From Naegleria gruberi (Eukaryota), in assembly GCA_000004985.1 (NCBI GenBank), contig GG738845.1: DNA of 64,000 nt. One strand, given 5' to 3'. The notes beneath the pieces are model-generated. The model made no database searches. It had not been told where the DNA came from and saw nothing but the letters and a program-made list of their open reading frames with translations. This document shows positions 3,561 through 62,756 of the stretch, in pieces. Made by a program: the position numbers and the translations under genes. The first letter of the stretch is position 1. Each line of letters starts with the position of its first letter.

Positions 3561-3599
3561 CAAATATGAGAATGGATGGAAAATGTTTTTATTTACAAG

Positions 3600-4150: not shown

Positions 4151-4214
4151 TATTAAAATACTGTGTGGTGTTGTGGATTTTGTGTGGCAGAGGGGGATTT
4201 GGATGACAGATTTT
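4151..4214 (+). repeat. Partial copy (3' end) of the GC-rich TIR element P
   Basis: ctgtgtggtgttgtggattttgtgtggcagagggggatttggatgacagattttccatcccctc matches the 3' half of 55180-55327, including the terminal gattttccatcccctc. Confidence 0.6.
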
Positions 4215-11889: not shown

Positions 11890-12075
11890 GAGAATTAAAA
11901 TAAACACAAAAGAAAGCAAATTCAAATAGAAATTAAAATACTTTCTCTTTCTTTTTGCAACCATTGAGGGCAAAATTTTTAGAGGTTTTAATAATTAATA
12001 ACAAATCACATTTAAAAGAATTAATTTGATTTTCTTGATGAGATAAAATGTGATAGATTTGATGTTTCATTTTTT
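11890..12075 (-). repeat. Repeat family R1, copy d
   Basis: Head at the right end. Forms a head-to-head pair with copy e. Confidence 0.8.
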
Positions 12076-12459
12076 TTACAAACTCTATTACCAATAAAAC
12101 CAAATATCTAAAAAAGATAATTTCTTAAAAGAGTTGTTGGTTTGATATTTTGTTTTTTGTAGAAAAACCAATCTCGTAAATATGAATGTTCATTAAGTCA
12201 AAATCAGAAACCTAAATCCTTTAAGACATGTCTATGAAGATATCTATTAATTGAATCAGAAGACCAATGGTTAAATTTACCTTTATCTTTGCATAAAATT
12301 ACATCTTGAGTTAATAAATTATCATTGTAATATTATGGTCAATTTTCACCAATCCATAGCCTTGGTAGATTGGTTTGGCCATAACTATTATATTAATAAC
12401 TTTCACTAAATACACTTTATTAAGGTGGAGAAAGAGTGACAAATTTTAAATATTTTGCT

Positions 12460-12850
12460 TTAAAAAAATGACACGTCAAATCCATCACATTTTATCTCAT
12501 CAAGAAAATCAAATTAATTCTTTTAAATGTGATTTGTTATTAATTATTAAACCCACTATTTTAATAACAAAAAGAAAAAGAAAATATTTTAATTTCAAAA
12601 TGAATCCGTTTTCTTTGCAATTTATTTTAGCATCCTCCATTGAGAGAATGGAAATATTACTTCTTCGAATTTGCAGAAGATATTGGTATAATATTAAAAC
12701 CAGACTGGAAAGGGTTTTTAATGGCGGGTTTTAAACATCTGCAATAATATACAAATGTTTAACTATATTTTCATTGAGAACCTTTTCACCTTTACGGCAA
12801 ACCAATACGACAGGTAAATCATATATTGTATCATACATGAGATGTTTATT
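12460..12850 (+). repeat. Repeat family R1, copy e
   Basis: Head atgacacgtcaaatccatcacattttatctcatcaag..., and tail block atcatacatgagatgtttattaagaccatg at about 12825. Confidence 0.8.
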
Positions 12851-14303
12851 AAGACCATGTAAAATTATTGCCTCTTATTGCCAAAATCGACAACAATAAA
12901 CAAACGAAAAGAGATTTCATTTTTTAAGTTGTTCTCTTGATTTGGCTCTTAATTACACTTTCCACATAATTGGTAGTATTTATAAAAGACATACTACTTG
13001 TTCGGCCTGTATTTGTTAATAAATGTCAATGCTTATTCCATTGCTCATGGAAGTATTTGCAAAAAGCACCTTCTTTGTCTGTGTTTTCCAAAGCCTCTAA
13101 AGTAAATGGAAACTGAAAACCCTTTTTCTTGAAACTCGTTTAATAATGAGTCACAAATATCCACACCTATATTGTAAATAGCTTTCTTGAAGATTGATTC
13201 TGTGATATCAACGATATCTTTAACACCTTCCAGTTTACCTCTGTGGTGATGTGTTTCCAATAGCAACCACCTGACCTTTACATAAATAAAAATAAACATT
13301 TTAAACCAAGTCGAAGAATACCAAGTTATAAATTGTTGAAATGGAATAATCTATTACAGATTTTGTATTTTGTGTTTGGTTATTACTTTGTACCTCTTTT
13401 GTTATATATTTTCACCTTCTTCCTGCGTTGTATGTTTTTTTGTATTACCTGTTTAGGTTAGGTTAATTCTAAAGCTCTATTCATATTCAGATTTTTCTTT
13501 TGGTTTGACTTATCCTTCAAATTGTGTTAGAGTTGTTTTATTTTTGCTACAAATAGAGTTAGTTTTGTAGCAAAGGTTAGGCCAAAAAGAAAGCTCTTGA
13601 TAAGGAAAGCTCTGTTGTTGAAGTTATACTGAATGTCCAAATGTGGAAAAATATGTGTTAAATTAGTGGGATGGATTTTGGATATTAATATACTCTGTAA
13701 ATCTCACTCATTTTGAATCCGAGTTGAATTAAAGTTGATATATTCTAAATCAATAACACTTTCCCAAAGGAAAAAACATAGTAATAAAATATTGAATTTT
13801 ATTTTATTTCATTATTTGCTCAATTTTATTCTATTTCAAAAAAAAGAATCCAAATACAGTGTTTTTCGTGTTTTGCATGTTTTTTCATGTTTTTTCAAAA
13901 ACGACTCTCACTGTCCCAACTTTTTGGATATTGGTGAATAAATAATCGGCAAAAAGCCAAAAGAAGAAAAAAGTTTATTTTTTAATTTTCTTATAAATAT
14001 TCGTAAAGTGATTTAAATGTATTCTTTGTTGATAATTACTCAAAACACAACACATTTCCAAATAATATTATCCAATCCAAGATTATGATTAACGAGGCAT
14101 CATTAAAAATCATTAACAAGAAATTAATGGCTCTACGTTAAGACCTAAGTTAAGCTGACGTTAACAGAAACAATTTATGAAAAGAAAAAAAAATTCAACA
14201 TAGTGAATGAACCGCCACCATTAATGGTGAATAGACTAATGTTACAGGAAATTAAGGAACCTCATCTTAATTCAATTTGATATTGTAACTTTCCTTTTCT
14301 TAG

Positions 14304-32959: not shown

Positions 32960-33160
32960 GCAACTACAAAATTATCAATAAAATATTCACTCTAGAAAGC
33001 GGATTCAAAGAGAAATTAAAATGCTGTCTCTTTTTATATGTCGTTGTTAGGGGCGAAATATTTGTAGTGGTTTTAATAATAAATAACAAATCATATTTAA
33101 AAGAATTAATTTGATTTTCTTGATGAAATAAAATGTGATAGGTTTGATGTTCCATTTTTT
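32960..33160 (-). repeat. Repeat family R1, copy f
   Basis: aacaaatcatatttaaaagaattaatttgattttcttgatgaaataaaatgtgataggtttgatgttccat matches the R1 head. Confidence 0.8.
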
Positions 33161-40572: not shown

Positions 40573-41616
40573 ATGGTGAGCAAGAGCAAACAATCCAACA
40601 AGGAAATTGTCGTTGAGGATGAACACTTCATCCCAGTCGAACCATCCGAACCAATCCTCCCTCTCAACGAACTCGGTTCAAGATTGGGCAAGGCAGACAA
40701 TGAAAAGTGGACAGGCTGCAAAGTTGTAGCAGACAAGGAAACTGGTGAGAAGGTTCTACTCGTCAGAGGTATTAAAAACAAGGAGAAGGATCGTAGTAAG
40801 AGAATGGTCAAGAAGGGTGGTGAATTTGATCCTGAAAATATTGTCTCAGGCACCAGAAGAAGAAAGAATATTAATTATAAGGAAAATACCGAAAGAAAGG
40901 AAAGCAGAAAGACTAGCAGCAAGAATACCCATGAAAATAGATCAAAGGCTGTTGCAAAGACTTCAAAGAAAAAGTCAACCTCCAAGAAGAGAAAGGCAAA
41001 GGAAGAAGAACATTCCGAAGAAGAAGAAGAACACGATAAGGAAAATATTGAAAATCAACAAGAAGAAGATGAAGAAATTGTTCAAGCTCCAAAGAGAACT
41101 AGAAAGAATAGAAAGAATGTATCTGTCAAGAAGGAAGAACCTAAGGAAGAAGAGCCAAAGGAACCTGAATGGACACTTCCACTCTCTCCTGTCGTTTGTC
41201 AATTGATTCAAAAACTTGGTGGTGAATTGCCAACTGAAGCTAAGAAGCGTTGTTATAAGGGTATTAGACTCTCAGAACCAGTTAATTATTGGTGTGCTGT
41301 CAAGTGGCCTGAAGATACTCTTTATGTTATGGATCCTGCCAAGACTAATGGTGAAACTGTTGGTCTCTTTAAACATGAATTGTTTGAATTGACTGAAATT
41401 GAACAAATACAATATGTTCAAGACAATCCAAATGCTGTCATGCTTGCTGATGGTGAAGGTCTCCTTACTTGTTTACCAGATGAATCTAATGATCCTGATT
41501 TTAATGTTCATATCATTCTTGAAGCTACTGAAGGTGCTGATGAATGTGTTTTCCGTATGAAACTCTCTGAATACCTTGCTTCGTTGTCTGTTGATCCAAG
41601 AAAGGTGGAAAATTAA
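40573..41616 (+). CDS. Lys/Glu-rich nuclear protein with a conserved-looking C-terminal domain, transcribed divergently from RFC5
   Basis: A 347-aa ORF. Residues 80-200 are K/E/R-rich and NLS-like. The C-terminal 150 aa are of ordinary complexity (WTLPLSPVVCQLIQKLGGELPTEAKKRCYKGIRLSEPVNYWCAVKWPEDTLYVMDP...). Confidence 0.4.
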   Translation: MVSKSKQSNKEIVVEDEHFIPVEPSEPILPLNELGSRLGKADNEKWTGCKVVADKETGEKVLLVRGIKNKEKDRSKRMVKKGGEFDPENIVSGTRRRKNINYKENTERKESRKTSSKNTHENRSKAVAKTSKKKSTSKKRKAKEEEHSEEEEEHDKENIENQQEEDEEIVQAPKRTRKNRKNVSVKKEEPKEEEPKEPEWTLPLSPVVCQLIQKLGGELPTEAKKRCYKGIRLSEPVNYWCAVKWPEDTLYVMDPAKTNGETVGLFKHELFELTEIEQIQYVQDNPNAVMLADGEGLLTCLPDESNDPDFNVHIILEATEGADECVFRMKLSEYLASLSVDPRKVEN

Positions 41617-43832: not shown

Positions 43833-46800
43833 ATGTCACAAACACCCGGTGGAGTGGGCGTGTCGAATAATTCAAATCCTTCTACTACTCTTCTGGGTTC
43901 ATCTTCTCAACAACAACCCACCGATATTAATAGTAGTTTGAATATTTTACAAGAAAAGATTATCTATATTGATGATGATCAGCCTACTTCTTCCGACAGC
44001 TCGGATACTCAACAACGAAAAAAACAAATTCAACAAGCAATAACGAATATATCAGAGTTTTTTATTTATTACTATCAACAAGAATGTAAATTTAATTTAT
44101 TAGATTCATCAAGTGGTTCATCTAGCACTGCTACTGCTACTAATAATACAAATAACTCTACATCCAACAATACAAGTAATAATAATTTGGAGATCTTTTA
44201 TAAAAATGTTACAAATTTCTTAAATATATCTATTCAACAATTATTAAGAGGATGTGGAGATGTGAGTGAATCCATTCGAACATTTTCTAATGAACATTTA
44301 AGAAAAGTGATCAAATCAGTAATTGATACACATTCCGATAGAGTATTAGTAATTTTATTTAGATGTATGAAGCCTAAAGCAAATAACAAGTATAGTATAA
44401 TAAGTGCAATTTCTAATTTTGCAAATATATCACATTATATTAAGCCACAAAAATGTAGAACAATGGTTTCATTTATTTTACCACAATTAATACAATTTAT
44501 ATCTATGGAATTTGACTATTATTCAACTATATTAGAAAATATTATTATGAATGGTTCTCTAGATAAAATTTTTGATATTTTAGGACCATACATTGAAAGT
44601 AATGAAATTTATGATTTTTGTAAAGATTTGTACAAATTATTATCACACTCTGAAGTTGAAATTAGAAGAGCTTGTGCTAAATGTATTTCATCATGTTGTG
44701 CTTTTATTCCTTCCTGTCCTATTCATCAAATTGCTTTGGACATTTTCAATTTATCAAATAATTGTTTTGATAGGAACCAAACAACAACAACAACAATACA
44801 TGATAACATCACAAATAACCTTGATCCGACAACAACAACAACAACACCAAACACCACTGCGAGTGAAGGAGTTAAAAAGATGAAAGCAAGTGAAAGTAAT
44901 TCTAACATAGAATGTACAGATATTAAAACACTGCAAGGAATTTTAAACACCTTTCTAAATTTACTAGTAGTACTAGATGAATTGAAGACAAATAATATAG
45001 AATATCAAACCTATAGTAATATTATTTGTGATTTATTAATTGATTGTCTTACTATTCAAGATCAGAGAATTTTATCACCTTCTATTGAATTATTAACTAA
45101 TTTACTTTCAAAATTTAGTAATTATTGTAAAAATTGGAATAGAGGAAAGGTTAATTCTTTACTTTCTAAAATAATATACTTGTTATCTGTTCAGAGTGTT
45201 CTTGTAACTGTTAAAAGTTATGTTTTAGAAACTCTACAACAATTTTTATACGTCTTTCCAGAATGGACATTAGATTCTTTCCAATCTAATGATTTTAATT
45301 TGAATTATTTGTTTAATATTTTAGATAATATCGAGGAAGATTATTTAATTCGTGGTAAATCTGCAATTTTACTTTCCACTATTATTGAAGTTTGTGTTAA
45401 ATTGTCTCACAAAAATTTATATGAAAAAGTAATTCCAATATTTGACTATGAAAGTATTTTATCAATGCCACGTTTAATCGGAAAAGGATCAAATCCTATA
45501 CTAGGTGGAAGTTCTGCTCACCATTTAATATTTTGTAAATTGAGTCAATATATTATTGATAAGATCATGTCTATCATGATGAAGGAATCATTTAATCATT
45601 TATTAATTAGAATGTTAATTAATTCTTGTTCTAAGAGCTTACCTATTTGCTTAAGCTCATTGGGAGAATTATCTTTCCATATTCCAAAATATATTTTATC
45701 TATTATTCATGTTAATGACAGTTTTTGGGGAGTCAAGTTTGAAATTTTAAATCTTTTAAATAGATTTGATTATACTCTTATTGAATATTACGAGAGAAAG
45801 AATAATGAAACATCAATTTCATTATCAACACAACCACTTTTACAAATTATTGTTGATTTGATTTGGAAATATATTGGTGATGATAACGAAAAAGTTAGAA
45901 AGTTATCATGTATGAATTTAATTCAATTATTACCATATCCAAATGTAATGAATAATATTCATGCTCAATTGAACACAAGTAATACTTTAACAAAAACATC
46001 ATCACAAATGGTTTCTATATTCGAAAGATATTCATCTAATTATGATAATAGATTATTGAAACAAATCATTTCATCAGATATTTTGAAATATAGAAATGTT
46101 ATTAGGGATCATGAATTGACCAATGTGGTTCTTGTTATTACACGTTGTATTTCTCAATTGAGTCTTGTAAAGGATGACAAACATACTTTTATTGGTATTT
46201 TAAAGTTATTATCTTTAGTAGCAAAGAAATATTCCTATACTAATACTCATAATTCTAATGTTAGTAACAGTAATAATAGTGTTTCCATGATTAAACCAGT
46301 TATTGCATACTACAGTATTGAAGTGTTAGAATTACTGTTAGACAAATTAAAATATTCATCTGAAATTAGTACAGATTTAAGCGTACACTCAATGATTATC
46401 AAGACAATGGGATTATATATTACTCAATTAAAACATTTAAATGAAGCCAAGGTCTTGTACATTACTGAGCATTTATTAGAATATGAACAATTTATGATTG
46501 ATTTGATAACAAATGTTTTTGATGAACAGTACATTAAACAATTATCAACCATTCAATCAGAATACCAAAAACATATGCACAAATATGTTTATGACAAGCT
46601 GTATAATAACATTTATCAGTCAGCCAAGTCATCTATTAGTAATGCAATTATTGATTCTACATATAGTAGAGATGCTATTTCTATTATGAGATATCAATTG
46701 TTAAAGACATTATACTATATTTTACTGAATGGATCACCATCATGCATTGAAAAATACACAATTTCAATGATTCAATATTTGAATTTTAATGCTAGATATG

Positions 46801-49800
46801 AAAAGAAGTACTCCATTCTATGTATCCAAGAATTATTCGTCTCATTGTTTGGTAAAAAGGATAAATACTACAATCTTAATATACCAAGTTACGAAAACAT
46901 GAAACCAGTGTTTATCAATGATGAATATGATGTTATTTCAAATAATGATGTGAAAAAGTCTAATGGCCTGTTCGACAAGATTTTTGTTGAAGGTAAAAAG
47001 TATTCTATCTATGCTAGAAGAGCAATGAATAGCGATTTGAATTCTAATAGAGTTAGAACTAGAAGTCTGCTAGTTCCTTATGGTGAATCTACTTCTCCTT
47101 CTAAAAATACAACTGGAACGACTGGTGGCGGTTCAAATACACCTTCTACCAAGAAGGCATTCAGTTATGATTCTCAATTTTTAAATACTGGTAAAACATA
47201 TAGACAAATATTGGGAATGTTCAATCCTGTAGTGATTGGTTTAACAAAATATTTCAAACACACTCATGACCGATCATTACAAAATGTGGTTTTATTCATG
47301 TTAATTAGAATGATTTGCATTGGAATAGATTTTAGTCAATTGGATAAGGATTCAACATTCATCAAGTTTATTTTTAATCAATTAGAAAAGTTTGACGAAC
47401 CTGACTTTGTTTTATATCAAATTATGGACTTTTTGTCTGTTTTATTGTTTATTGTCAAATACCAACATTTCCCTGAGAATCCATTTGATTCTATTGTAAA
47501 ATTAGTTCAATCAACATTCAATAGCTCACAGTTTGAAAAGAACGGAAATTCAATTTTAAAGTCAATTTCACCTGTAATGATAAGAGGTTTCTTATGTGAA
47601 ATCAGAACTGAAAAAGTTGAAAAGAGTTATGGTAACTTGATGCTGAATGAATTTTTGAAAAATGTAACCTTACCAGAATGTCAATCTGTATTGACATTGC
47701 TATTAAGAAATGTTCATCATTCAACTTTAACATGTTCAAACACCAATAATACTACTGGTAATGCCTCATCAAGTAGCAATAGCAACAATACATCATCAAA
47801 GGATGCAACATCACTTCCGTGGATTGAATTATCAAATTCTATTCTTAAAGAATGGGTTGTTAAACATAATTTACAGGTGGATGTAGATTGGAATTTAATA
47901 TCAAACATTTCTAACCATTTCCAAACAAATAACATTGCTACCACTTATTATAATCACACTGTAAATTCAAATAGTGGAGGTTTAACATCAAACTCATCTG
48001 CTTCAAATGGAAATCAATCTATGAATTTGAAATCCAATCTTGTTTTCCAAAATAGATGTAAAAAAGAAAATGTTCAATATGAGTTTAATAATTGTGAATT
48101 TATAATTGAACTTTCTAAAATATTTTATTTCATTGATGCATTGTACATTAATATTAATGACCAAGCAAAGATTGTAACTCACTTGATAGATTCTTTTGAT
48201 GAACATTTAGATCAAAATTCTCTTGAAAAACAAGTTCAAACACCTTCCTCAGTTCAACATAAGGAAAATATGAACGAAAAGTTGAGTGTTATTAATAGCT
48301 TGCTAAAGTCCTTGATATTTATGAAACTCTTGAATAGAATTGATAAGAAACAAGCTAACGTGCAAGAAAATTTAAAGAATCTTGAAAGGTTTTTGCAATC
48401 AATTTCAAATGCATTGAATTTATATTTGAATCATAGAGACACTTCCTCGATTATCGTAATCAAGTATTTAACTTGTGAAATGTTGACTGTCACAATAGAA
48501 TTACAAGAGAGATTGTATATCAAGTTGTTGACACACGAACATGTACGACAATCTGATCATTTGAATTCCATTTTCCATAATCAAATTTTGCACATTTTGA
48601 AATTATTTAATATTAACTACCTCAAACATTATGATTTTACAATTTATACTTTGTTGTTCTCACTTTTGCTTGCTCATTCAAAGGTAGAAAAACAATTTGG
48701 AGTTTCATTCTTGAATTATTTATATGGTTTTTATCACTCTAATATTTATAACTTTAATATTTTGAATAATACCCAATTATTATTAGGCATTAATGAAAGT
48801 ATTGCATCCGATGAGAATAATTTAACATATCATGAATTTGTAATTCAACAAAAATCAGTTTTCCTCAGTATGATCAACATAATTGTAAATTATCAAGATA
48901 ATATCATTGAATTATTCAAACAATGCGAAATTAATAATCTATCCAATCGTATTTGGAAAGAAATATTCAATCACTTTGATGAGCCATTAATAGAAAAGTT
49001 TTTGGAAAAGTTCTGTAGAGATATTTGTTGTGAAAATGATCTAGTCGGATTATTTGACGAATTGAATGATAAATTCAAATCCCAACTACATTTAAACGAT
49101 TTGAGAATTCTATTTAAGTTTATTAAGAATAATATTAAAAAAGAACATTTAATTTGGTTGCATCCTAAGATTGTCAACCAATTGGAAGAAAGATTAAAGA
49201 TTGAAACTACATTTATGAAAAGAAAAGTTATATCTGATATGATTAAGTATATTAATTCAAATATTGAAAAGCCAAATGAAAATTCAAAATTAAACCAAGA
49301 ATTCAAAAACTTGGATTTAATTTTAGAAAAGGTTAAAAATGAAATGTTTAAGAATCAAAATGAAATTCCTCCATCAAAATTAGTTAATAACTTTTTCACC
49401 TATAACAATTTAGTTTCTAATCCATTAGTAATTTCAAACTTCTTAATTGAATATATGGATAAAAATGAACTTAAATATGTTCCTAGTATAGTTAGCAATT
49501 TAAATATTCAATCAATTAACAACATTCTAGTACATTTCAAAGATAACGTTGAATTTATAACATCATTATTAATTCATTTGAAATCTAAAGAACAAATTTT
49601 ACCTTTTATTGAATTTACGTTCAATGAATTGAATAATATTCCATATAACTTTACAAGTTATTTGAAATTATCTAATTTATTATCAAAGTTACTATCAAAA
49701 TGTAGATCATCAAATGATTTAATTCAATTATATGATAAGAATATGGTTATTAATTTTACAATTAATTTTATTGAATTATTTTATTTGGAGAGAATTCAAA

Positions 49801-52800
49801 AACATAATGTTGATATTACAGATGTTGATTATATTTTATCGTTAATTTTACAAATTTTGTATTCGTTTGGTAATTCTATTGAATATTATTCTGAAAATTT
49901 ATTATTAATTTTAAATAATCCAGAAATAGATTTAAATTTGAATACTAATAATACTTCATCTAATACTACCAAAACTACTACAAGTACTGTGGAAGAAACT
50001 AAGAATACTACTCTATTATTAATGGAAGATGATTATGTTGATAGCTTTGCAACAACAACAGAGGAACCAACTGAACAAGAACCACAACAAGAAGATCAAT
50101 CACCTAACAAGGAGACTAACAATTCTATTTTAGAAATGAATGAAGATGAAAGAAGGGTACTAAAATTCATCAAATTATCATGTCAATTAATAATTGATGC
50201 CACAAGCGTTTCATCACAATCCATCAATTACAATAAGGATATTAATATTTTGAAATATTTAAAGTTGATTCTATTCAAAACTTTCCAATTATATCCAAAT
50301 ATGCAAGCTTCTAATGAGGATAGTGATATTTATGGAAGTGTTGGAAATACTACATCCTTGTACGGATTTTCTATTGGTAATAGAATACCATTTATTTCAT
50401 ATCATCATTTGAAGTTGATTAGATCTATTGGTTTGGAGCTTTCTAAATGTTTTATTAATTTAGTATATGATCCATATTTACCAAACATGGAAACACAATA
50501 TTTCCCTAGAATTGATATAGAACAAGTTCAAACGTTAATTTTCATGATACAAGAAATAGGTTGCAATGAAGAAATATTTAAGCAATTGTTCGAAATGAGT
50601 TTTGATTTGCTCAAGATGGAAATTACTCAACCATTTGATGAAATTCATGTTTTATTTATCAAATTGTTGACATGTATGATATGTAGAATGAATCAACCTC
50701 CGTCCCTATCCAATAACTTTTCATCCAATATATTATCATCATTTGATAACTTTGGAAATTCACTTCTTGGAATCCAACATGGTGGTAATAATTTGAACTC
50801 CATTTTGAACTCTGTCGAAAAGTACTTGTTAAAATCTACTGGTTCAACAAATAGTAGTGGTACTAGTGGTTCATTCACTGGTGGTATTGGAACATCAAAT
50901 AATAGAAACAGTTTCAATGGAAGCTTTGGTAACATGAGTAATTTAATTGATAAGAATAGTAATACTACTAGACAGAGTATTAGTGTTGAGGAAATTTATT
51001 CCAAAGCACTTTTTAACAGCTTCATGTTATTTATTCATGATAGCATCCAAAAATTCAGTAAGAATAACTTGATGATTACAAAAGAATTGGTTAAATCACT
51101 CATTCTTATTATGGAAAACAACATTGTATTATTTGCTGTTAATAATGGTACTTATTCAGTTCAATGGTTGCACGAATTATTTAAAAACATTTATAAGGAA
51201 TGTAATTTATACGAAGATTGGATATTAGGACAATATGCTCTATATGGTTTGAGCAAAACTTATGCCATTCTACATTCAAATAATGCCAAAGATGTCAATG
51301 AAGATTTTATCATCAAAACAATGGAATCATCACTTGTTAACAATCATTTGAAACAATCTGCATTACAATCAGTTTTATCATTTATTGAATGTGGAAATAG
51401 AAATATTGTATTGAAATTACTTCCTTATTTAGCAAGCAATATTCAAACATGGTTATTAGATAAGGAACAAACTGTTTATAATCAATTATTATTGATGAAA
51501 ATGGTAACTCAAATGGTACAACAATATCCTGAAGCATCTGTTCACCAATTGACCAAAAAGACTATGGAATCTTTATTCAATTTATCAGATGATATTGACG
51601 CTCCTTTAACTATTGTCGTCACCATCTTTAAATCTTTACAAAAATTATTAATTAATTATTCACTTTCTCAATTTGAAAGATCTTTAATTGAAGCCATGAC
51701 AAGTATTAAACAATCTACAATGATCACCAGAAATGATAATACCAATGCAGTAACTAATAGGAATGATGCTGGAATGATGAACAAAATTGTTACTCCGTTC
51801 AAGAAGATGACCATTGATACTTCAACATTTAGTAATTTCACACAAATGTTAGCTCAAAATAAGACCATGTTAATTAATAGAAAGTCTACTGCTGGTTCTA
51901 TGCAATCGAGCAGTAATACTGCGACTGTTAATACATCCAGTTCAACTTTACCTTCTAATAAGACAAATAATAGTTCTAGAATTAGTACTGAGAAACCTTC
52001 AATTACAGCCACAAGTAATAATATCAGTATTACTGTTGGAAGTGGTATTCCTAATTCTACTACCAACACTGCATCATCTTCTGTAGCACCAACAAGTAAT
52101 AACAATACAGCAACCACCAAGATGAAACAATTCATGAGTTTCTTCACAACTAAGAAGCAAACGACTCCTCCAACGAGTTCTACGACAACTACCACTCCTG
52201 CCGTTAACCAACCATCATTAACTCCACCAACTAATCCTACTTCTGGCTCATTAACATCATCTCCAAGTCTTTCATCACTTCCAATGAGTAGAAGTATGAG
52301 CATGACATCGATTGTATCAAGTATGGCAAGATCAAGTGAAAAATTACAAACTCTCTCACAGACAAGAAGAGTTTTATTACTTGGATTAATGTCAACTTCA
52401 ATGTATACATCATCATGCTCAACACAACAACAATTAGATTCACAAAGAGAACGTGCTAAAGTTAATATTTTACATTTAATTGAACAATTCCACGATGGTG
52501 AAATTGATAGAGAAGGTGAAATTATTTTAAGATTTATTCCACAATTAATGGTAGATTTCTTTGACAATGAGCAAATATTACCATTATTATATAACGAATT
52601 TTTGAGCTCTAAAACCCATCCACTGCTGTTATCATTACTTTTATCACTTCACATGCCACATTCTTTGAATGATAGAAAAGTGTTTGAAAATTGGATCACA
52701 ATGAGTATGCAAACGCTTTGTTTGAAACAACCAACATGTGGAGCATTGTGGGCATTAATGTGCTTGTTTATTAGTGTTTGTATTGGTGAATTTGACCATC

Positions 52801-53087
52801 ACTATGCAACACTAGTTTACTTTGGATCAAATTATGGACTTGTACATGAATGGAATGATATCTCTTCACATGCTTTCCTTTTATATGGATTAATATTTTA
52901 TAATTATTTATCAAAACATGAAATGGATGGTGCCATTAATGTTTTTAAGAATGTTGTTCTTCCTCAATTGATTCAAGATTCAAAAGATCAATTAATTTAT
53001 GTTAAATTATTGAAATCTTTACTATTTTTGATTAATTCAAACAATGGAGCAACTTTACAAACCAAGTCACTTGAGGATTTCTTTTAA
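43833..53087 (+). CDS. htt: Huntingtin homologue, 3084-aa single exon
   Basis: The N-terminal HEAT region aligns with human HTT: ISHYIKPQKCRTMVSFILPQL against [21 protein letters not shown], and SEVEIRRACAKCISSCC against SSPTIRRTAAGSAVSIC. The size matches huntingtins of about 3.1 kaa, and long N/S/T low-complexity inserts are present. Confidence 0.55.
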   Translation: MSQTPGGVGVSNNSNPSTTLLGSSSQQQPTDINSSLNILQEKIIYIDDDQPTSSDSSDTQQRKKQIQQAITNISEFFIYYYQQECKFNLLDSSSGSSSTATATNNTNNSTSNNTSNNNLEIFYKNVTNFLNISIQQLLRGCGDVSESIRTFSNEHLRKVIKSVIDTHSDRVLVILFRCMKPKANNKYSIISAISNFANISHYIKPQKCRTMVSFILPQLIQFISMEFDYYSTILENIIMNGSLDKIFDILGPYIESNEIYDFCKDLYKLLSHSEVEIRRACAKCISSCCAFIPSCPIHQIALDIFNLSNNCFDRNQTTTTTIHDNITNNLDPTTTTTTPNTTASEGVKKMKASESNSNIECTDIKTLQGILNTFLNLLVVLDELKTNNIEYQTYSNIICDLLIDCLTIQDQRILSPSIELLTNLLSKFSNYCKNWNRGKVNSLLSKIIYLLSVQSVLVTVKSYVLETLQQFLYVFPEWTLDSFQSNDFNLNYLFNILDNIEEDYLIRGKSAILLSTIIEVCVKLSHKNLYEKVIPIFDYESILSMPRLIGKGSNPILGGSSAHHLIFCKLSQYIIDKIMSIMMKESFNHLLIRMLINSCSKSLPICLSSLGELSFHIPKYILSIIHVNDSFWGVKFEILNLLNRFDYTLIEYYERKNNETSISLSTQPLLQIIVDLIWKYIGDDNEKVRKLSCMNLIQLLPYPNVMNNIHAQLNTSNTLTKTSSQMVSIFERYSSNYDNRLLKQIISSDILKYRNVIRDHELTNVVLVITRCISQLSLVKDDKHTFIGILKLLSLVAKKYSYTNTHNSNVSNSNNSVSMIKPVIAYYSIEVLELLLDKLKYSSEISTDLSVHSMIIKTMGLYITQLKHLNEAKVLYITEHLLEYEQFMIDLITNVFDEQYIKQLSTIQSEYQKHMHKYVYDKLYNNIYQSAKSSISNAIIDSTYSRDAISIMRYQLLKTLYYILLNGSPSCIEKYTISMIQYLNFNARYEKKYSILCIQELFVSLFGKKDKYYNLNIPSYENMKPVFINDEYDVISNNDVKKSNGLFDKIFVEGKKYSIYARRAMNSDLNSNRVRTRSLLVPYGESTSPSKNTTGTTGGGSNTPSTKKAFSYDSQFLNTGKTYRQILGMFNPVVIGLTKYFKHTHDRSLQNVVLFMLIRMICIGIDFSQLDKDSTFIKFIFNQLEKFDEPDFVLYQIMDFLSVLLFIVKYQHFPENPFDSIVKLVQSTFNSSQFEKNGNSILKSISPVMIRGFLCEIRTEKVEKSYGNLMLNEFLKNVTLPECQSVLTLLLRNVHHSTLTCSNTNNTTGNASSSSNSNNTSSKDATSLPWIELSNSILKEWVVKHNLQVDVDWNLISNISNHFQTNNIATTYYNHTVNSNSGGLTSNSSASNGNQSMNLKSNLVFQNRCKKENVQYEFNNCEFIIELSKIFYFIDALYININDQAKIVTHLIDSFDEHLDQNSLEKQVQTPSSVQHKENMNEKLSVINSLLKSLIFMKLLNRIDKKQANVQENLKNLERFLQSISNALNLYLNHRDTSSIIVIKYLTCEMLTVTIELQERLYIKLLTHEHVRQSDHLNSIFHNQILHILKLFNINYLKHYDFTIYTLLFSLLLAHSKVEKQFGVSFLNYLYGFYHSNIYNFNILNNTQLLLGINESIASDENNLTYHEFVIQQKSVFLSMINIIVNYQDNIIELFKQCEINNLSNRIWKEIFNHFDEPLIEKFLEKFCRDICCENDLVGLFDELNDKFKSQLHLNDLRILFKFIKNNIKKEHLIWLHPKIVNQLEERLKIETTFMKRKVISDMIKYINSNIEKPNENSKLNQEFKNLDLILEKVKNEMFKNQNEIPPSKLVNNFFTYNNLVSNPLVISNFLIEYMDKNELKYVPSIVSNLNIQSINNILVHFKDNVEFITSLLIHLKSKEQILPFIEFTFNELNNIPYNFTSYLKLSNLLSKLLSKCRSSNDLIQLYDKNMVINFTINFIELFYLERIQKHNVDITDVDYILSLILQILYSFGNSIEYYSENLLLILNNPEIDLNLNTNNTSSNTTKTTTSTVEETKNTTLLLMEDDYVDSFATTTEEPTEQEPQQEDQSPNKETNNSILEMNEDERRVLKFIKLSCQLIIDATSVSSQSINYNKDINILKYLKLILFKTFQLYPNMQASNEDSDIYGSVGNTTSLYGFSIGNRIPFISYHHLKLIRSIGLELSKCFINLVYDPYLPNMETQYFPRIDIEQVQTLIFMIQEIGCNEEIFKQLFEMSFDLLKMEITQPFDEIHVLFIKLLTCMICRMNQPPSLSNNFSSNILSSFDNFGNSLLGIQHGGNNLNSILNSVEKYLLKSTGSTNSSGTSGSFTGGIGTSNNRNSFNGSFGNMSNLIDKNSNTTRQSISVEEIYSKALFNSFMLFIHDSIQKFSKNNLMITKELVKSLILIMENNIVLFAVNNGTYSVQWLHELFKNIYKECNLYEDWILGQYALYGLSKTYAILHSNNAKDVNEDFIIKTMESSLVNNHLKQSALQSVLSFIECGNRNIVLKLLPYLASNIQTWLLDKEQTVYNQLLLMKMVTQMVQQYPEASVHQLTKKTMESLFNLSDDIDAPLTIVVTIFKSLQKLLINYSLSQFERSLIEAMTSIKQSTMITRNDNTNAVTNRNDAGMMNKIVTPFKKMTIDTSTFSNFTQMLAQNKTMLINRKSTAGSMQSSSNTATVNTSSSTLPSNKTNNSSRISTEKPSITATSNNISITVGSGIPNSTTNTASSSVAPTSNNNTATTKMKQFMSFFTTKKQTTPPTSSTTTTTPAVNQPSLTPPTNPTSGSLTSSPSLSSLPMSRSMSMTSIVSSMARSSEKLQTLSQTRRVLLLGLMSTSMYTSSCSTQQQLDSQRERAKVNILHLIEQFHDGEIDREGEIILRFIPQLMVDFFDNEQILPLLYNEFLSSKTHPLLLSLLLSLHMPHSLNDRKVFENWITMSMQTLCLKQPTCGALWALMCLFISVCIGEFDHHYATLVYFGSNYGLVHEWNDISSHAFLLYGLIFYNYLSKHEMDGAINVFKNVVLPQLIQDSKDQLIYVKLLKSLLFLINSNNGATLQTKSLEDFF

Positions 53088-53854
53088 ATAAAGAATTTGT
53101 GTTTGCTTTTTTTCTTGGGCATAGATTAATTTTCCAAATAACAAACACAAACAACACTCAATTCATAGAAGAAAATTACAAAATATTTATGCACCAAATA
53201 GAAAGAACAAGCTTTAGAATTTGAAATTTCAAAAGAAAATGATTTTGGTGCTTCGTTTATGTCTTTTTCAAAATCAATTAGAGATTTATTTTAATCCTTT
53301 GTTAACTTTCTTTGTATTTATAAAATCTCCTTTAAAATTTCTTCTTAATAATCAACCTACCCTTCTTATAAATTTAATCTCTTTTAACAAACCAGCGTCC
53401 ATTATTAAGAATCATTTTTTCAAAACAGACCCATATGAAAAACACAAATGGTTTGCTTATTCTTTGTTTTCCCCTGTTATTTTCGAGAAAATATATATTT
53501 TAGTTGGAATGTAGTTTAAGAAACCGTTAGAATAGAATTATGGTTCTATTGTGTTATTGGTAAAATAAAACGGTAATACTAAGGTTTGAAAAATAAGATC
53601 AAACTTGATCAATGAACAAACTTTCAAAGACGAATAAATTTAGTCTCTTCATAATAAGTTTGATCGTAAAGATTGATAAATATTTCTTCATTTCCAAGAC
53701 CAAACATTCTGTGGCCTAATATATTTGGTGGTTCAGTTAATAATTAGTTACAAAAACAATAATTTGCACTGAAATATATTGTAAATCCATTTTAATAACA
53801 TAAAACCAATAATGGTGCATTTTGGATTTAGATTTTTTCCCAATTTGTTATTTC

Positions 53855-54025
53855 ATTCAAAAAGAAAATGCAAAAACATTCATTGGTCAACACTTTTGAT
53901 AAATTATTATTCAAGTTTAATGGTTGTTTTATATTGGATTGTCAGGAAATTCTTTTAATTCATAATAACAGTACAAAATTATTGTCCTACCAAAATACTA
54001 CAACAAGTAACAATTATCAAATCCG
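53855..54025 (+). repeat. About 170-bp segment duplicated at 55010-55180. Both copies are overlapped by artefactual MQKHSLVNTFDKL… ORFs.
   Basis: About 85% identity. In copy 2 the sequence diverges exactly where the GC-rich element P begins. Confidence 0.7.
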
Positions 54026-55009
54026 AAAGAAAGTAGTTATTGATTTTCCAAATAACAAACACTCAATTAATAGAAGACAAAATGAAAGAAATAATTTTCC
54101 AACAAATAACTGTAACACTTTATCATCAAGTAACCTGTTGCTTCTGAGTATTCAAAGATATCAGAGAATAGGAAATGATGAACGATTGAAAATAATTATT
54201 CAACATACATATACTAAGATGAATGATTGTGGTGTATGTTATTATCGAAAAAGAAACCAAGTTCATCAATTAATGATTCATGTAATTGAATTATTGTATT
54301 TGGTTTTAAAATTACAACCCAATACCAACCTCTACAAACATTATTGTTCATTGATAATGCTAAATCCATTCTCGCTTCAAAAGTCAAATTTGAATAGTCA
54401 TTAATATAATAGCTTCGATGTTTCATTCTGATTTTTTCAAATTCTATTTTATTACTGATAATACAGGATCACAATACACAAGTTTACCTAATTTTTGTAA
54501 ATGGAAAGGTAAAAAATTAAGAAAATAGTTTTTTGTGTTCATGTTTTTCATAAATTAATAATTACTTTTCAACGTTTCAGTTTTCTTTTTATTTTTACTT
54601 TAGTTTTTTCGAATGTCTTTTCCAGTTTAGATGAAGATTTATTTTGTACAAATTGGGAACTCTTATTGTAAAAAGAAACTCAATTCTATGTTTCGTGTTT
54701 AGATTAAGACTGAGTTATTATGTTCAAATGTGGAACTAAAAAACACAACAATCCTGCATAGGTATGAAATTACTTTCTTCTGGAGAAGAAATAAAAGTTC
54801 CAGGATTGTAAAGAGGATAAAAGATTATTCGTATATTCTTATTGAATTATATTGTTGCTCAGTAATATACAATAATCTTAGATAATCCACTTCTTTCATC
54901 AAAATCCATATGGATTCAAAATATTCAAAACATGCAACCACAACCAGTTTCCATCGATTTATATATTCCCAATATCATTGACTTTCATTTAAAAAAAAGC
55001 AAGTTTGGG

Positions 55010-55180
55010 ATTGAAAAAGAAAATGCAAAAACATTCATTGGTTAACACTTTTGATAAATTATTCAAGTTTAACTTGAATATTTTTATATTGGATTGTCAG
55101 GAAATTCCATTAATTCATAATAATAATACAACATTATTTTCTTACAATAATATTACAAAAACAAACAATTATCAAATCCG
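55010..55180 (+). repeat. Second copy of the 53855-54025 segment
   Basis: See above. Confidence 0.7.
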
Positions 55181-55327
55181 AGGGGATGGAAAATCCTCGA
55201 TCCAAATCCCACGCTTTGCAGATGGATTGTTGGATCCATCCGCAAAGCCAAAATATCGTGTGATGTTGTGGATCCTGTTTGGCGGAGGAGCCGCGTGGGA
55301 TTTGGATGGCGGATTTTCCATCCCCTC
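55180..55327 (+). repeat. GC-rich 148-bp element P with perfect 17-bp terminal inverted repeats (gaggggatggaaaatcc … ggattttccatcccctc). It may be a MITE-like element or a structured RNA.
   Basis: The TIR is read directly from the sequence. The element is about 50% GC against an AT-rich background. Partial copies lie at 3600-3702 and 4151-4214. Confidence 0.6.
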
Positions 55328-55597
55328 GTGTAAAGGAAATTCCTTACAAACTCTCCAATACTATTTACTATTGGTGGGATCTAATAAAATTCTTTTTTTT
55401 AAATAATTTGGATTCTTTAAAAGAAAATTCAATTTTGCAAAGTTAATTATTATTAATTAATTTATTATATTATACTATACACTTGTAAATAAGGTGAATA
55501 AAAACTCAATAATTCAAAACATTGACAAATAAACATGTGAAACCTTTCTACAAACTATATTCATTGAAATTTTCAATTTATTTCTAATATTTACAAC

Positions 55598-56209
55598 TTA
55601 ATCTTCATGAACTTCAACAGTAGACAGTGGTCTATCAACTCTCTCCTCAGTTCTTTCATTAATATTCTCCTCTTGAACCAATCTCAATTCATAATAATAA
55701 TTTCTCACTCCCCAAATAAAATTAAACAATAAAAACACAGTAACCAATGCAGTATACTCATATCTAATACTCTTATAATAGAAAGTTTCAACAATGTAAT
55801 GAGTAATTGAAATACAATCAGCAAATAGAGTGTAACCAGTGAGCATTCTATTCTTCTCAATACTTGCAGTATAAAGATTCATAAAACCAACAATAAAACC
55901 CAAGATTGCAGCTGATCTTTGTAAATGATCATTTCTTCCTTGACGTGAAAATCCAAAGAAAATGTCAGCATGTAAAACACTTGTCAATGTGTCAACATAG
56001 AGAAGTGTTGCATTGGCAATGAATGCTAATCCAATAATAAATAAAGAAGTGTTGAAAATTCTCCTTCCTGGAAAGTACATTTGCCTCAAACCCTTTTTCA
56101 ATTTGTTTCTTTCATCTGATTGTTCAACATTAATTTGTTTATCAGAAATTGACTTGTTTAGACTGCTACTACCACTTGTTCTTTGATCAATAAACTTGGA
56201 TTCTACCAT
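55598..56209 (-). CDS. Hypothetical 4-TM membrane protein (203 aa)
   Basis: Four hydrophobic segments (LFIIGLAFIANATLLYV, AAILGFIVGFMNLY, and two others) are flanked by charged tails. Confidence 0.4.
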   Translation of the reverse strand: MVESKFIDQRTSGSSSLNKSISDKQINVEQSDERNKLKKGLRQMYFPGRRIFNTSLFIIGLAFIANATLLYVDTLTSVLHADIFFGFSRQGRNDHLQRSAAILGFIVGFMNLYTASIEKNRMLTGYTLFADCISITHYIVETFYYKSIRYEYTALVTVFLLFNFIWGVRNYYYELRLVQEENINERTEERVDRPLSTVEVHED

Positions 56210-57689: not shown

Positions 57690-60600
57690 TTGATGAGACA
57701 TTTTAAAAGAAAAATGCGACCTCACCAGCCTCCCACACATCTTCAAATTCCTTCCCAGCACACCCATCATCATCAACCCCAACAACAACAATATACCACC
57801 TCCTCGCTCAATGTTCAACATCCATCATCAACCAGTAGTAGTAGTAGTGGGCATCATATGGATCGCATTGTTTCTCCGTCAAGTCCTCGAGTTAATACAA
57901 ACAAACCAACCTTTTCTACTTCCTCCTCTGCCTCCAATCTTCAACAAGCCTTTTCATCATCCAATAATAACAATAATAATAACAATATAAATATTTCCTT
58001 TGAAAATGTTCAAGAGGAAATTATTACAGTACCACTCTCACAAGAATTAATTCAAGTCTATCAGAAACAACTCTTTGAATGTATACAAAAATTAAAACAA
58101 ACACACACCGATGGTAAAGATAAAGCCAAATCACTTGAACAAATTATTTATTTAGCATGTACATTAAAATCTGATTTTACTATGGCTCTCTTTGGAGAGT
58201 ATAACAAGTCAACAAACAATCAGCAACAACAAAATGATAAAACAACCTCATCCTCTTCTGCTAGTTCTACTATGAATGGTGCCAATAATAATTCATCAAC
58301 AACAACAGGACAATGGACCTACTCCCCACAATTAGATTTATTTATTAAATGTATGAGATATTTGTTATTACATAGAAGTTCATATATTAGATCTCTAACA
58401 GTAAGATGTATGAGATATATAATACAAAATGATCCTTGCAATTTTCCATTTGAATTATTATGGACAAAATATAATTGTCACTTGTTAATATTTAAAATGA
58501 TGTTAAATGATACAGATAGAGAAAAGATTCAAGTATTGGAATTAATTAGAACTCTATGTAACAATTTTGTAAAAAGAAAGCAATCAAAACAATCCTATTT
58601 TGCACCTCCTCAACATGAAATTCAAATACCCTTCTTATTTATGAAGGGAATTGTTCACTTTTTAAGTTATATTGATGGAACTCTATTACAAATGGAGCAA
58701 CAACAACCTCAACTGCAACAACAACAATTAAACTCTCGATCAACAACTGCAACAACAACTGCAACTGCAGGACAAGGTGCCAACAATGGAAACACATCAA
58801 CTGCAGGTAATAATAGTAATACTAATACAGCCACAACTAATAATTTAAGTAGTAGTGCAAATGATCAAAAGAAACAATACTTTTTAGAATCATATAAATC
58901 AGTTTGTATTGAAATATTGAGAGATAGTTTAATTCATGATGAAAGTTTATGTAGTACAATTATCAAATGTGGTGGATTTAAATATCTTGTTGAATTATTG
59001 TTAAATAACAAATTTTCAACTTATCATAACAGTATTCTATCAAGTATTTTATTTATTTGTGATAGATATAAAACTAGAAAGTTTATGAAAAAAGGTTTAT
59101 TACAATTATTATATTTAATTTCACCTTTTACAAATTACAGTCAATTATATCAACCACTTTTAGATGCTATTAATAATGCCAAAGTAACAAATCCAAACTT
59201 GGTACAACAATTAACAAATGATCTAAATCAATTAGTATTAGAATTAGAAAGAAGTAAAAATATTATACTCTTTTTAATGAGATCATGGACTGGTTTATTT
59301 ATAGTCAACCAAGACAATATTAATATTTTAGGTACCTTATCAAACTTGTTAAAATCACCAAATAGAACACAGTTGAAACATTTAATATTGGATTTATATA
59401 TTGAAATTTTAAAACAAAGTGCACCTAGCAAGTATCATTATTTAATTCCTCCAGTTTTTAGTGAATGCGAAAGAAAATCCAAGTCATCTACTTCTACCAA
59501 TGCATCTGGTACAACAGGTAGTGGTACCACTACTAGTGTACCTAATGGTGCTGGAGGTACAACAACAAGTGGTGCTGGAGGTGGTACCGCTATTGGTTCA
59601 TCAAGTTCTGCTTTAAATACTAGTACAAGTGCTATACTCTCAACTTCAGCAGCTTCATCAATTGTACATGGTGGATTTAGTAATGATGTAACATTTTATG
59701 CAGATCACTCAGGAGATGAAGATCGTGTTGTGAATATTTGTTTTGTTTTCTTGTCAATGACAATTTTAACATTAATTGACAGTGGATTGATAGATTCTTT
59801 ATTATATTTATCAAAACAATCAATGATTAATAACAAGAAAAAACAAACTAAAAATCTAGATCCAAAAGATAAATTGAATATCAACGATGATGACGACGAA
59901 GATAAAAGTGAAAGAGCGTTTATTAGTTTCAGAGCAAGTCAATTATTACAATCAGTTTTATTATTTAGTGACATGTTATTGAATAAGAGAACATGTTTAA
60001 ATATGCAAGATAGATTTGATACAGAAATTGCTAACTTTTTACTTTCTATTACTAAGAGTAATTTGTACAGTTACAAAACATTGAGCATGTTATCTGCATT
60101 TTATCAACAATCTTTCCAATCTTCAAATGTGACTGGAGGTTCAATTCATGTTGATCAAGCAATGATTCAAGCTCCAGCTAATTTAAGTGTTTTATCTGAT
60201 AGCACTCCAGCATCATCAGACTCTATTGGAGATAGATTCTCTAAATTTAGTACAACAAATATTCCAACATTTTATATCAGAACTCAAATTGATAGTGATA
60301 TGGATGATCAATCATTTAATCAATTGATTAAAGAGTCTAATGTACTTGTGACCAAAGACCCAAAGAGATGGAATTGGGAAAAGATTTATTGTTTAATATT
60401 TGGTCCATTGAGAGTTGCTCATAGATTGAAAGAAGTTACAACAAAATCACAAAAATTGCTAAAAAGAATACTCTCCTACTTTAAACCTTACAAGAGAGCT
60501 TTTAGTGACTTGAAATATCAAGAAAGTAATTTTGGTTATACAAAATTATGTAATGAATTGTTGTACAATTTACTTCACATGGATGAAAGTGGTATTGAAA

Positions 60601-62756
60601 TTATTAGAGAATGTAAAATTATTAAGCAATTCTATGAAGTATTGGAAATTGAAGTTAGAGTTGGTAAAACAACAAGTGTTGGAGGTAGAAATGATCCAAA
60701 ACCAATTGACTCTGAAAAGAGATTATTGAGTGAAGAGCGAGTACAAAAATACATGGTTAGAGATTACTTTACAATCATTGGATTGATGAGTAGTACAATC
60801 AAAGGAAAAGAATTATTGGAAGAAGAGAAAATATTTGATGTTCTCAAGGATTTAACAACTAGAAGAGATGATATTTCACAATTGATTATCAAACATTTAG
60901 ATTATACAAGACCATTCTCTGATAGAGCAAGAGAAATATTAAAAGAAGCAATGATGAATGGTTCAAATATTATCAGATATATTAGTACATTATTTATTAG
61001 ACATTTAATTAGACAATCTCAAACCTATCCAAATAATTTCCATGCATGGGGTGTCCCTCTATTGACAAGCAAATTATATGATGATTGGGAAAAGGTTAAA
61101 TTTTCTGCCATTTCAATTTTGAGTGAAGTTTGTTGTATGAACATGTCTTCAAATTCGAGTAGTGCTGGTGATTCATCCTCAACATCAGATTTTGAATACG
61201 ATGATTCAGCAACATCCATGCTCTCATCACCAAGAGTTTCAAGTGGAAGTAATGAAAATTTACTTGCATTCGTATCACAGAACATTTCACGTGACGTGAT
61301 GGAGAGCGTCATGAGAGAGGGACGTGATGGAATGAATTTACTCTTGAAAATGACAAGTTGTAGAGAAGGTATTGATTATCTTTCACATGATAGTATTAGA
61401 TTATTACAAGAATTAGTTGAAGATTGGTTTGAACGTGAGTCTTATCAATACTTACAACAAGTTGAATATGGTTTAAATAGATTTTATAATATGAATCAAT
61501 CTGCTCCATCCAATACTAGCTATTCTCCAAGTTCAACAACTGGTCACACCACAATTGGAGGATCGCAATTAGTTGTCGGATCTTTATCACCATCTGGATT
61601 TAGAGAAACTGGAATGGCATCACCAACATTTAGGTCATCCAATCAAGCACAATTCCAAAGCTTGAGTGGGTCATATGACTATGCTAAACATGGTGTAATT
61701 TTACAAAGTAATTTATATGGTGAATTATGTCATACACTAGAAGGATGTACAATTTTAACAAATGACAAACATAGAACATTACATTGTTTGTGTATGAATT
61801 TATTGAATGTTTATCAATCTGTTTTAACATATCACAATAATATTGCTAATAGATTATCAAATAGTAACGACAGCAATATTGAACCACAAATTGAACAAAT
61901 TGTTGAATTGTGGTCATTAGCATTCTGCTGTAGTACAAATACAGGATATGAATATTGTAACAGATATATTCAACAAGTTATTATTGGATATGAAAAGAAT
62001 CAAAATGAATCATTCCAAACTGCAGGTGATGAACAATTTACTGTTGTTCAATATTTTGTTTACATTGCTTTACATAGTAAGGACATTTCATTAAGAGGTA
62101 CAACATTATACTTGTTGGGTATTTTATCTAAATGTAGTTTAGCTAGAAAAGATTTATTCGAAATTGGATTTGAATGTTCATATCGTTATGCTATTTCAAT
62201 TCCAAGAGATAGAAAGAGTTTCTTTACCATTATTACTGATAATTCATCTTCTAATGAATCAACAGGTAAAAATAACACTTCTTCAACAAGTAATCATCAC
62301 CATCATCGTAAGGATGATTTTGATGAAGATGATTACTTATTAACATCAATTTTGAAAGAGTCACCAAAGAATGCAGATTTGATCAAGGATCTTGTATCAA
62401 ATGTAACAAAAATTGCAAATCCAGTTCATGAGCAACAATCATCAACAAATTTGCAAAATCTCAAGACAAATATTGCACGAGTTTTGACAAATAATGAGAA
62501 ATCTAAATTAATTTATTACTTTTTAGGAAATCATTTCACCCACTGCAAATACAAATGGAAGATTATCAAGTTTGTAATTAATGACCTTTTGGGTGGTAAT
62601 AGTAGCATGCTTTGTTCATCTATTGCAACATCAAACGATTCTGCATTCCCTTCATTTGATCCAAATGTTGAAGATGAACTCTATGTTATGAATACTCATT
62701 TATTGTGGTTAGATACTGAAACAGATTTGAAAATTAACAAATTACAACAACAATAA
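57690..62756 (+). CDS. Rictor (TORC2 subunit, pianissimo-like), 1688-aa single exon
   Basis: RWNWEKIYCLIFGPLRVAHRLKEVTTKSQKLLKRILSYFKPYKRAFSDLKY aligns with human RICTOR LEWNWNLIGTILKWPNVNLRNYKDEQLHRFVRRLLYFYKPSSKLYANLDL. YFTIIGLMSS…LDYTRPFSDRAREIL…IRYISTLFIRHLIR aligns with YFLFIGTLSC…LDYSRDGLARVIL…CRLYATKHLRVLLR. Poly-N/Q/S/T inserts are present. Confidence 0.75.
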   Translation: MMRHFKRKMRPHQPPTHLQIPSQHTHHHQPQQQQYTTSSLNVQHPSSTSSSSSGHHMDRIVSPSSPRVNTNKPTFSTSSSASNLQQAFSSSNNNNNNNNINISFENVQEEIITVPLSQELIQVYQKQLFECIQKLKQTHTDGKDKAKSLEQIIYLACTLKSDFTMALFGEYNKSTNNQQQQNDKTTSSSSASSTMNGANNNSSTTTGQWTYSPQLDLFIKCMRYLLLHRSSYIRSLTVRCMRYIIQNDPCNFPFELLWTKYNCHLLIFKMMLNDTDREKIQVLELIRTLCNNFVKRKQSKQSYFAPPQHEIQIPFLFMKGIVHFLSYIDGTLLQMEQQQPQLQQQQLNSRSTTATTTATAGQGANNGNTSTAGNNSNTNTATTNNLSSSANDQKKQYFLESYKSVCIEILRDSLIHDESLCSTIIKCGGFKYLVELLLNNKFSTYHNSILSSILFICDRYKTRKFMKKGLLQLLYLISPFTNYSQLYQPLLDAINNAKVTNPNLVQQLTNDLNQLVLELERSKNIILFLMRSWTGLFIVNQDNINILGTLSNLLKSPNRTQLKHLILDLYIEILKQSAPSKYHYLIPPVFSECERKSKSSTSTNASGTTGSGTTTSVPNGAGGTTTSGAGGGTAIGSSSSALNTSTSAILSTSAASSIVHGGFSNDVTFYADHSGDEDRVVNICFVFLSMTILTLIDSGLIDSLLYLSKQSMINNKKKQTKNLDPKDKLNINDDDDEDKSERAFISFRASQLLQSVLLFSDMLLNKRTCLNMQDRFDTEIANFLLSITKSNLYSYKTLSMLSAFYQQSFQSSNVTGGSIHVDQAMIQAPANLSVLSDSTPASSDSIGDRFSKFSTTNIPTFYIRTQIDSDMDDQSFNQLIKESNVLVTKDPKRWNWEKIYCLIFGPLRVAHRLKEVTTKSQKLLKRILSYFKPYKRAFSDLKYQESNFGYTKLCNELLYNLLHMDESGIEIIRECKIIKQFYEVLEIEVRVGKTTSVGGRNDPKPIDSEKRLLSEERVQKYMVRDYFTIIGLMSSTIKGKELLEEEKIFDVLKDLTTRRDDISQLIIKHLDYTRPFSDRAREILKEAMMNGSNIIRYISTLFIRHLIRQSQTYPNNFHAWGVPLLTSKLYDDWEKVKFSAISILSEVCCMNMSSNSSSAGDSSSTSDFEYDDSATSMLSSPRVSSGSNENLLAFVSQNISRDVMESVMREGRDGMNLLLKMTSCREGIDYLSHDSIRLLQELVEDWFERESYQYLQQVEYGLNRFYNMNQSAPSNTSYSPSSTTGHTTIGGSQLVVGSLSPSGFRETGMASPTFRSSNQAQFQSLSGSYDYAKHGVILQSNLYGELCHTLEGCTILTNDKHRTLHCLCMNLLNVYQSVLTYHNNIANRLSNSNDSNIEPQIEQIVELWSLAFCCSTNTGYEYCNRYIQQVIIGYEKNQNESFQTAGDEQFTVVQYFVYIALHSKDISLRGTTLYLLGILSKCSLARKDLFEIGFECSYRYAISIPRDRKSFFTIITDNSSSNESTGKNNTSSTSNHHHHRKDDFDEDDYLLTSILKESPKNADLIKDLVSNVTKIANPVHEQQSSTNLQNLKTNIARVLTNNEKSKLIYYFLGNHFTHCKYKWKIIKFVINDLLGGNSSMLCSSIATSNDSAFPSFDPNVEDELYVMNTHLLWLDTETDLKINKLQQQ

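Follow-up and report, generated by a model that had tools for sequence, protein, structure and literature searches.

MITEs of the Stowaway and Tourist types are short, non-coding elements with terminal inverted repeats (TIRs) that fold into hairpins, lie near genes, nest with other TIR repeats and occur as several diverged or truncated copies. The canonical Stowaway end is CTCCCTCC, with a TA duplication, and Tourist/PIF ends follow GGCC/GGGG...GTTTG, with a TWA duplication. Foldback and other palindromic repeats are nearly all self-complementary and contain short repeated motifs, and foldback elements of the classical type are far larger, each arm being composed of tandem subrepeats. Among amoebae, thug-S of Dictyostelium is a DNA transposon that yields miRNAs (PMC4894637, PMC6161686). 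In Naegleria gruberi only a small fraction of the repeats is classed as known transposable elements (PMC12344493), and because so few can be assigned, an unnamed repeat family is to be expected there.

Here we describe a 148-bp element in a stretch of N. gruberi DNA that was analysed over its whole length of 64,000 nucleotides (the window). In its size, its TIRs, its lack of coding content, its hairpin fold and its several diverged and truncated copies, the element is like a MITE, and it shares with MITEs a position near genes and the nesting with other TIR repeats. It departs from them in that no target-site duplication is visible and the window holds no autonomous partner. Its ends, GAGGGGATGG..., also appear to differ from the canonical Stowaway and Tourist/PIF ends. 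With foldback and palindromic repeats it has in common that nearly all of it is self-complementary, that it is full of short repeated motifs (seven GGAT and seven ATCC) and that it stands at a gene-fragment breakpoint; compared with the classical foldback elements, however, it is much shorter, and a core of about 45 nt is non-palindromic. Its likeness to thug-S, as a small repetitive amoeba element with hairpin-RNA potential, is one of general description, and the two hosts are unrelated, thug-S belonging to a dictyostelid and our element to a member of the Heterolobosea.

Structure of the element

The intact element reads GAGGGGATGGAAAATCC ... GGATTTTCCATCCCCTC (window 55180-55327; Table 1). 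Its terminal inverted repeat, GAGGGGATGGAAAATCC, is perfect at 17 of 17 positions, or over 18 bp if the bases at 55179 and 55328 are counted, and complementarity of the arms extends inward to 33 of 35 positions (55180-55214 against 55293-55327). A first-pass annotation made from the letters of the sequence had reported a GC-rich 148-bp element with perfect 17-bp TIRs at this place, and our measurements agree with it. The GC content of the element is 52%, compared to 25.6% and 24.2% in the 500-bp flanks, and over stretches of 150 nt the element is the GC maximum of the 64-kb window, so that it looks foreign to its surroundings. The same annotation described the genome as over 80% AT, which is too high: the window, which is gene-rich, has 30.6% GC and 69% AT.

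When up to three mismatches are allowed, the 17-mer end motif is found at four sites in the window, against 0.10 expected from shuffling. The interior is also strongly patterned, with seven GGAT and seven ATCC tetramers (14 in all, compared to 1.1 expected), a count that none of 10,000 shuffles matched. At 148 bp the element falls under the limit of about 800 bp for a MITE, and it has no coding capacity.

Folding of the element, which the first-pass annotation had proposed as a check, gives a near-complete hairpin with a z score of about -10 (-10.7 as RNA). Folded as DNA the element reaches -50.8 kcal/mol, folded as RNA -93.8 kcal/mol, and none of 200 shuffles was equally stable. In the predicted fold, the two arms form the outer stem, an inner palindrome takes up element positions 34-68, and the non-palindromic core corresponds to positions 69-113.

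Table 1. Features of the window that bear on the element (window coordinates)
Feature	Position	Strand	Description
Intact element	55180-55327	.	148 bp; folds as one near-complete hairpin
Left terminal inverted repeat	55180-55214	+	35 bp; outer 17 bp perfect against the right arm
Right terminal inverted repeat	55293-55327	-	Pairs with the left arm
Internal palindrome GCTTTGC-GATGGAT..ATCCATC-GCAAAGC	55213-55247	.	Second stem within the element (predicted fold)
17-mer end-motif sites	Both ends of 55180-55327; 3599-3615; 4208-4224	3599-3615 (+); 4208-4224 (-)
Decayed copy	3599-3702	+	Left end kept with 2 mismatches; element positions 17-40 (24 nt) deleted; 3' truncated after about position 123
Decayed copy	4151-4224	+	Reduced to the 3' part (roughly positions 72-148, 8 nt of it deleted); right end with 1 mismatch
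Second repeat family, full members	3375-3997 and 11902-12616		Inverted arms of about 180 bp; about 620-715 bp; AT-rich
Second repeat family, solo arms	5332-5486 and 32994-33160
Huntingtin-like ORF	43833-53087
Fragment C	53125-53233		Family codons about 59-90 only; directly after the huntingtin-like stop codon
Gene A	53868-54404		Intact small ORF of 178 codons
Fragment B	55015-55180	+	Start of a small-ORF family gene: its first 54 codons and a few bases upstream of them
Annotated exon of XP_002683341.1	55221-55373	+	Starts at element position 42, ends 46 nt beyond the element
Erg28-like gene	55598-56209	-	203-aa ORF
Rictor	57690-62756

Diverged copies and a second repeat family

The first-pass annotation had counted one full and two partial copies of the element. 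Both partial copies are real, although the second ends at 4224 rather than at 4214. By BLASTN and alignment, the copy at 3599-3702 is 79.8% identical to the intact element over 84 nt and the copy at 4151-4224 is 78.2% identical over 78 nt, and where these two overlap they are 79.5% identical to each other. The three copies are thus about equidistant (78-80% pairwise), which argues against a recent local duplication. Comparison of the flanks gave nothing significant (p = 0.18 to 0.94), and on this ground a longer element containing the 148-bp unit was rejected. Three copies at nearly equal identities within unrelated flanks fit independent old insertions rather than local duplication. Each decayed copy retains one end only. 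The window has a single intact copy, and no fourth copy could be detected by BLASTN within the 64 kb.

The decayed copy at 3599-3702 is nested in another TIR repeat (3375-3997), whose arms of about 180 bp enclose it. The arms of this second, AT-rich family are 83-93% identical and the interiors of its two full members are unrelated; the family is probably another non-autonomous TIR element. A 35-nt match (91%) connects 3997-4031, just outside the first full member, to 12821-12855, about 200 bp past the second, and hints that the repeat units or insertion contexts of this family are larger than we have mapped.

The motif (G/T)TGTAAA, reading outward, adjoins two of the four ends of the 148-bp element and its copies (at 3592-3598 and 55328-55335), with nine of the 12 first flanking bases matching. 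This likeness of the flanks was not significant in an unanchored test, and we treat the motif as a coincidence, although it could be a target preference.

The left boundary and the small-ORF family

Two near-identical segments of 170 bp, one of them adjoining the element, had been noted in the first pass. The segments are indeed homologous, but their identity is 86% over 173 bp (53855-54024 compared to 55010-55179), and each is the 5' end of a small ORF, the two ORFs being paralogues. The family to which these ORFs belong has a length of about 178 aa, lacks a Pfam domain and forms a diverged tandem array, in the order C-A-B, downstream of the huntingtin-like gene (Table 1). An intact relative of 179 aa, P0008, is encoded on an 893-bp ENA metagenome contig (PRJEB11402; L244 in what follows). 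Fragment B has 85% amino-acid identity to P0008 and 89.3% DNA identity to positions 195-363 of L244. Direct-repeat spacers are present on L244 itself, at positions 70-170 and 790-890.

The homology of fragment B to gene A and to L244 ends one or two bases into the element, and both gene A and L244 run uninterrupted past the point where fragment B meets it. In both comparisons, then, the full copy starts exactly where the duplicated segment stops matching, as the first-pass annotation had seen. It had likewise noted, correctly, that beyond the element the duplicated segment is not taken up again, and in three tests resumption of the family gene to the right of the element was not significant (p = 0.21, 0.99 and 0.11). 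The left end coincides with the truncation of fragment B, and the right flank shows no significant resumption; the locus does not look like a simple insertion from which an empty site could be recovered. The coincidence at the left end fits either an insertion with an adjacent deletion or a palindrome-associated breakpoint.

Target-site duplications, which the first-pass annotation had listed among the things to look for, were absent at the intact copy when lengths of 2-10 bp and boundary shifts of -3 to +3 were considered, apart from a trivial CG belonging to the palindrome and one 4-mer that carries a mismatch. Comparison with gene A and L244 gave no clean empty site, the right flank showing no significant resumption, and no autonomous element with the same ends occurs in the 64-kb window.

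The array starts with the 5'-truncated fragment C (family position 183) and ends with the 3'-truncated fragment B (to position 169). B is cut at L244 position 363 and C at position 377, which puts the two truncations 13 nt apart in gene coordinates, a proximity that may be a coincidence. The junction between the huntingtin 3' flank and fragment C is also present on L244; since the window and L244 have it in common, this junction predates the split of the two organisms.

Gene neighbourhood and a chimeric gene model

The ORF at 40573-41616 is identical to N. gruberi XP_002683340.1, and a second local gene model is XP_002683341.1. Further genes of the window include those for a P-type ATPase and an F-box protein. 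The huntingtin-like and Erg28-like genes are convergent, and the element lies in the 2.5-kb spacer that separates them, 270 nt beyond the stop codon of the Erg28-like gene.

Homologues of the Erg28-like ORF are found in N. fowleri (67% identity; PF03694, Erg28) and in Willaertia magna. No N. gruberi protein was among the matches of this ORF, and the gene seems to be absent from the N. gruberi annotation, probably because a chimeric model covers the locus. When XP_002683341.1 (NAEGRDRAFT_45319, 3664 aa) is mapped to the window, it follows the huntingtin-like gene to 52526, continues through an exon at 55221-55373 that overlaps the element, and takes up Rictor from 57759. The model omits about 186 C-terminal codons of huntingtin and spans the Erg28-like gene on the opposite strand. 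The mapping shows NAEGRDRAFT_45319 to be a huntingtin-Rictor chimera, and its exon in the element is very probably an annotation artefact.

Searches for relatives of the element

The covariance models of Rfam 15 gave no match at the gathering threshold across the 64 kb. A permissive scan restricted to 55100-55420 had MIR847 as its top match, at 27.7 bits compared to a gathering score of 184, which is a generic match to a long hairpin. A search for tRNA-like genes found none. The first-pass annotation had put forward, next to a transposon remnant, a small structured RNA gene in the manner of dictyostelids. This alternative fails as it was framed because the window is N. gruberi, as the matches to XP_002683340.1 and XP_002683341.1 establish, and it has no Rfam support. 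Membership in the dictyostelid class-I ncRNAs or in thug-S was likewise rejected, the host being N. gruberi and no Rfam family reaching its threshold. An rDNA or organelle origin was set aside as well, as far as the Rfam models reach: they gave no rRNA or other signal over 55100-55420.

BLASTN of the element against plasmid and phage collections returned no matches, and its end sequences, searched as a text string, had no match in a full-text literature search. Exact matches to the 17-mer numbered at least 120 in metagenome contigs, five in viral contigs and 115 in prokaryotic genomes, a pattern of this length being too short for collections this large. When the whole element was compared by BLASTN to the loci fetched for these matches, the alignments covered 21-26 nt, with one 36-nt match at 86% identity. 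Because BLASTN extends none of them beyond the end motif, we take the outside 17-mer matches to be chance, and their counts fit chance by a rough estimate from collection size. A degenerate pattern of the core had no matches in viral contigs.

Protein searches gave a similar picture. The 49-aa ORF internal to the element yielded no candidates. In a phmmer search of 1.84 billion representative proteins, the read-through ORF retrieved only the local model and one relative of the small-ORF family, and the peptide encoded by the element was matched solely by XP_002683341.1. A concatenate of all six frames found nothing; this search is a weak negative, since it missed the known local model too. Three N. 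fowleri loci around the Erg28-like orthologue (L241-L243) show no synteny with the window and are without the element.

Origin of the element

The element is a genuine feature and not a product of chance. Most probably N. gruberi has in it a short TIR repeat of an ordinary kind that has yet to be classified. Among the possible origins, the best-supported is that of a MITE-like remnant, as had been suggested in the first pass: TIRs, small size, no coding, three diverged copies at unrelated sites, nesting with another TIR repeat and a boundary at a break in a paralogous gene all point to it, although the target-site duplication and the clean empty site are missing. We therefore consider the element a candidate mobile element, the relic of a non-autonomous, unclassified TIR DNA transposon (MITE-like) of N. 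gruberi. In our judgement this reading could equally turn out right or wrong, because the intact copy has no target-site duplication and no clean empty site, and because the 64 kb of the window yield three copies, only one of them intact, and no autonomous partner.

If the element did move as a transposon, a transposase recognising its ends and the subterminal GGAT/ATCC motifs would have spread the copies in trans. The fragments at 3599-3702 and 4151-4224 would be old, dead copies and the copy at 55180 the best preserved, having inserted within or beside the gene that closes a small tandem family. A deletion beside the insertion could then have taken the rest of that gene together with any target-site duplication. 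Transcription of either strand, should it take place, is predicted to give a long imperfect hairpin, a potential Dicer-type substrate.

Long palindromes are hot spots of rearrangement, and the missing target-site duplication at the intact copy is also what one would see if the element were a non-mobile palindromic repeat, copied passively or as filler, whose hairpin or cruciform made a breakpoint. The base of the palindrome would then be the point at which the end of the small-ORF array (fragment B) was fused to the flank of the Erg28-like gene. In agreement with such an event, fragment B ends exactly at the base of the hairpin with unrelated sequence on the other side, the DNA hairpin has an extreme stability, and C (183) and B (169) are truncated at points only 13 nt apart. 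However, the two copies 51 kb away keep terminal sequences in unrelated flanks, which transposition explains more easily, and the junction of the huntingtin flank with C, common to the contig of a related organism, is older and not obviously linked to the element. We regard a passive palindrome at a breakpoint as the main rival, though a rather unlikely one. The great stability of the fold as RNA (-93.8 kcal/mol, z = -10.7) could instead suggest a hairpin-RNA gene, or a domesticated transposon copy, whose transcript would be processed to small RNAs, comparable to the Dictyostelium thug-S miRNAs or the MITE-derived miRNAs of plants. The arms differ at just two of 35 positions, fewer mismatches than the divergence of about 20% among copies predicts, predicted homologues of Argonaute and of Dicer-like enzymes have been reported for Naegleria (PMC13315211), and transposon-borne miRNAs have a precedent in an amoeba (PMC4894637). 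Still, the element has no meaningful Rfam match (MIR847, the best, scoring 27.7 bits against 184), its multi-branched fold is atypical of a miRNA precursor, and each of the other copies has lost one arm and so cannot form the hairpin. A hairpin-RNA gene thus appears improbable as the nature of the element, and a hairpin-RNA role, if there were one, would be compatible with either a transposon or a palindrome origin.

The annotation itself treats part of the element as genuine coding sequence, in XP_002683341.1, and the frames do seem to permit this: five of the six are open across the element, and the annotated exon has AG and GT boundaries. But open frames are what a GC-rich palindrome is expected to give, and the model that contains the exon fuses the huntingtin-like gene with Rictor, drops about 186 codons and spans a gene on the opposite strand. 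Its peptide, moreover, has no homologue among 1.84 billion representative proteins except the model itself, so that a coding exon is hardly credible. There is also a bolder proposal, which we think quite improbable, that the palindrome is an active cruciform-forming site where the permuted C-A-B array was opened and joined between the huntingtin-like and Erg28-like genes, and/or a hairpin that feeds an uncharacterised Naegleria small-RNA pathway.

Implications

Beyond housekeeping, the element is of little importance: it would add one short TIR repeat without a name to the repeats of N. gruberi, which are poorly classified. The practically useful by-product is the mis-annotation of NAEGRDRAFT_45319, which could mislead comparative studies of huntingtin or of Rictor. 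Should the element prove to give rise to small RNAs, or to be a site of repeated breakage, it would offer a way into the study of RNA silencing or genome instability in a heterolobosean.
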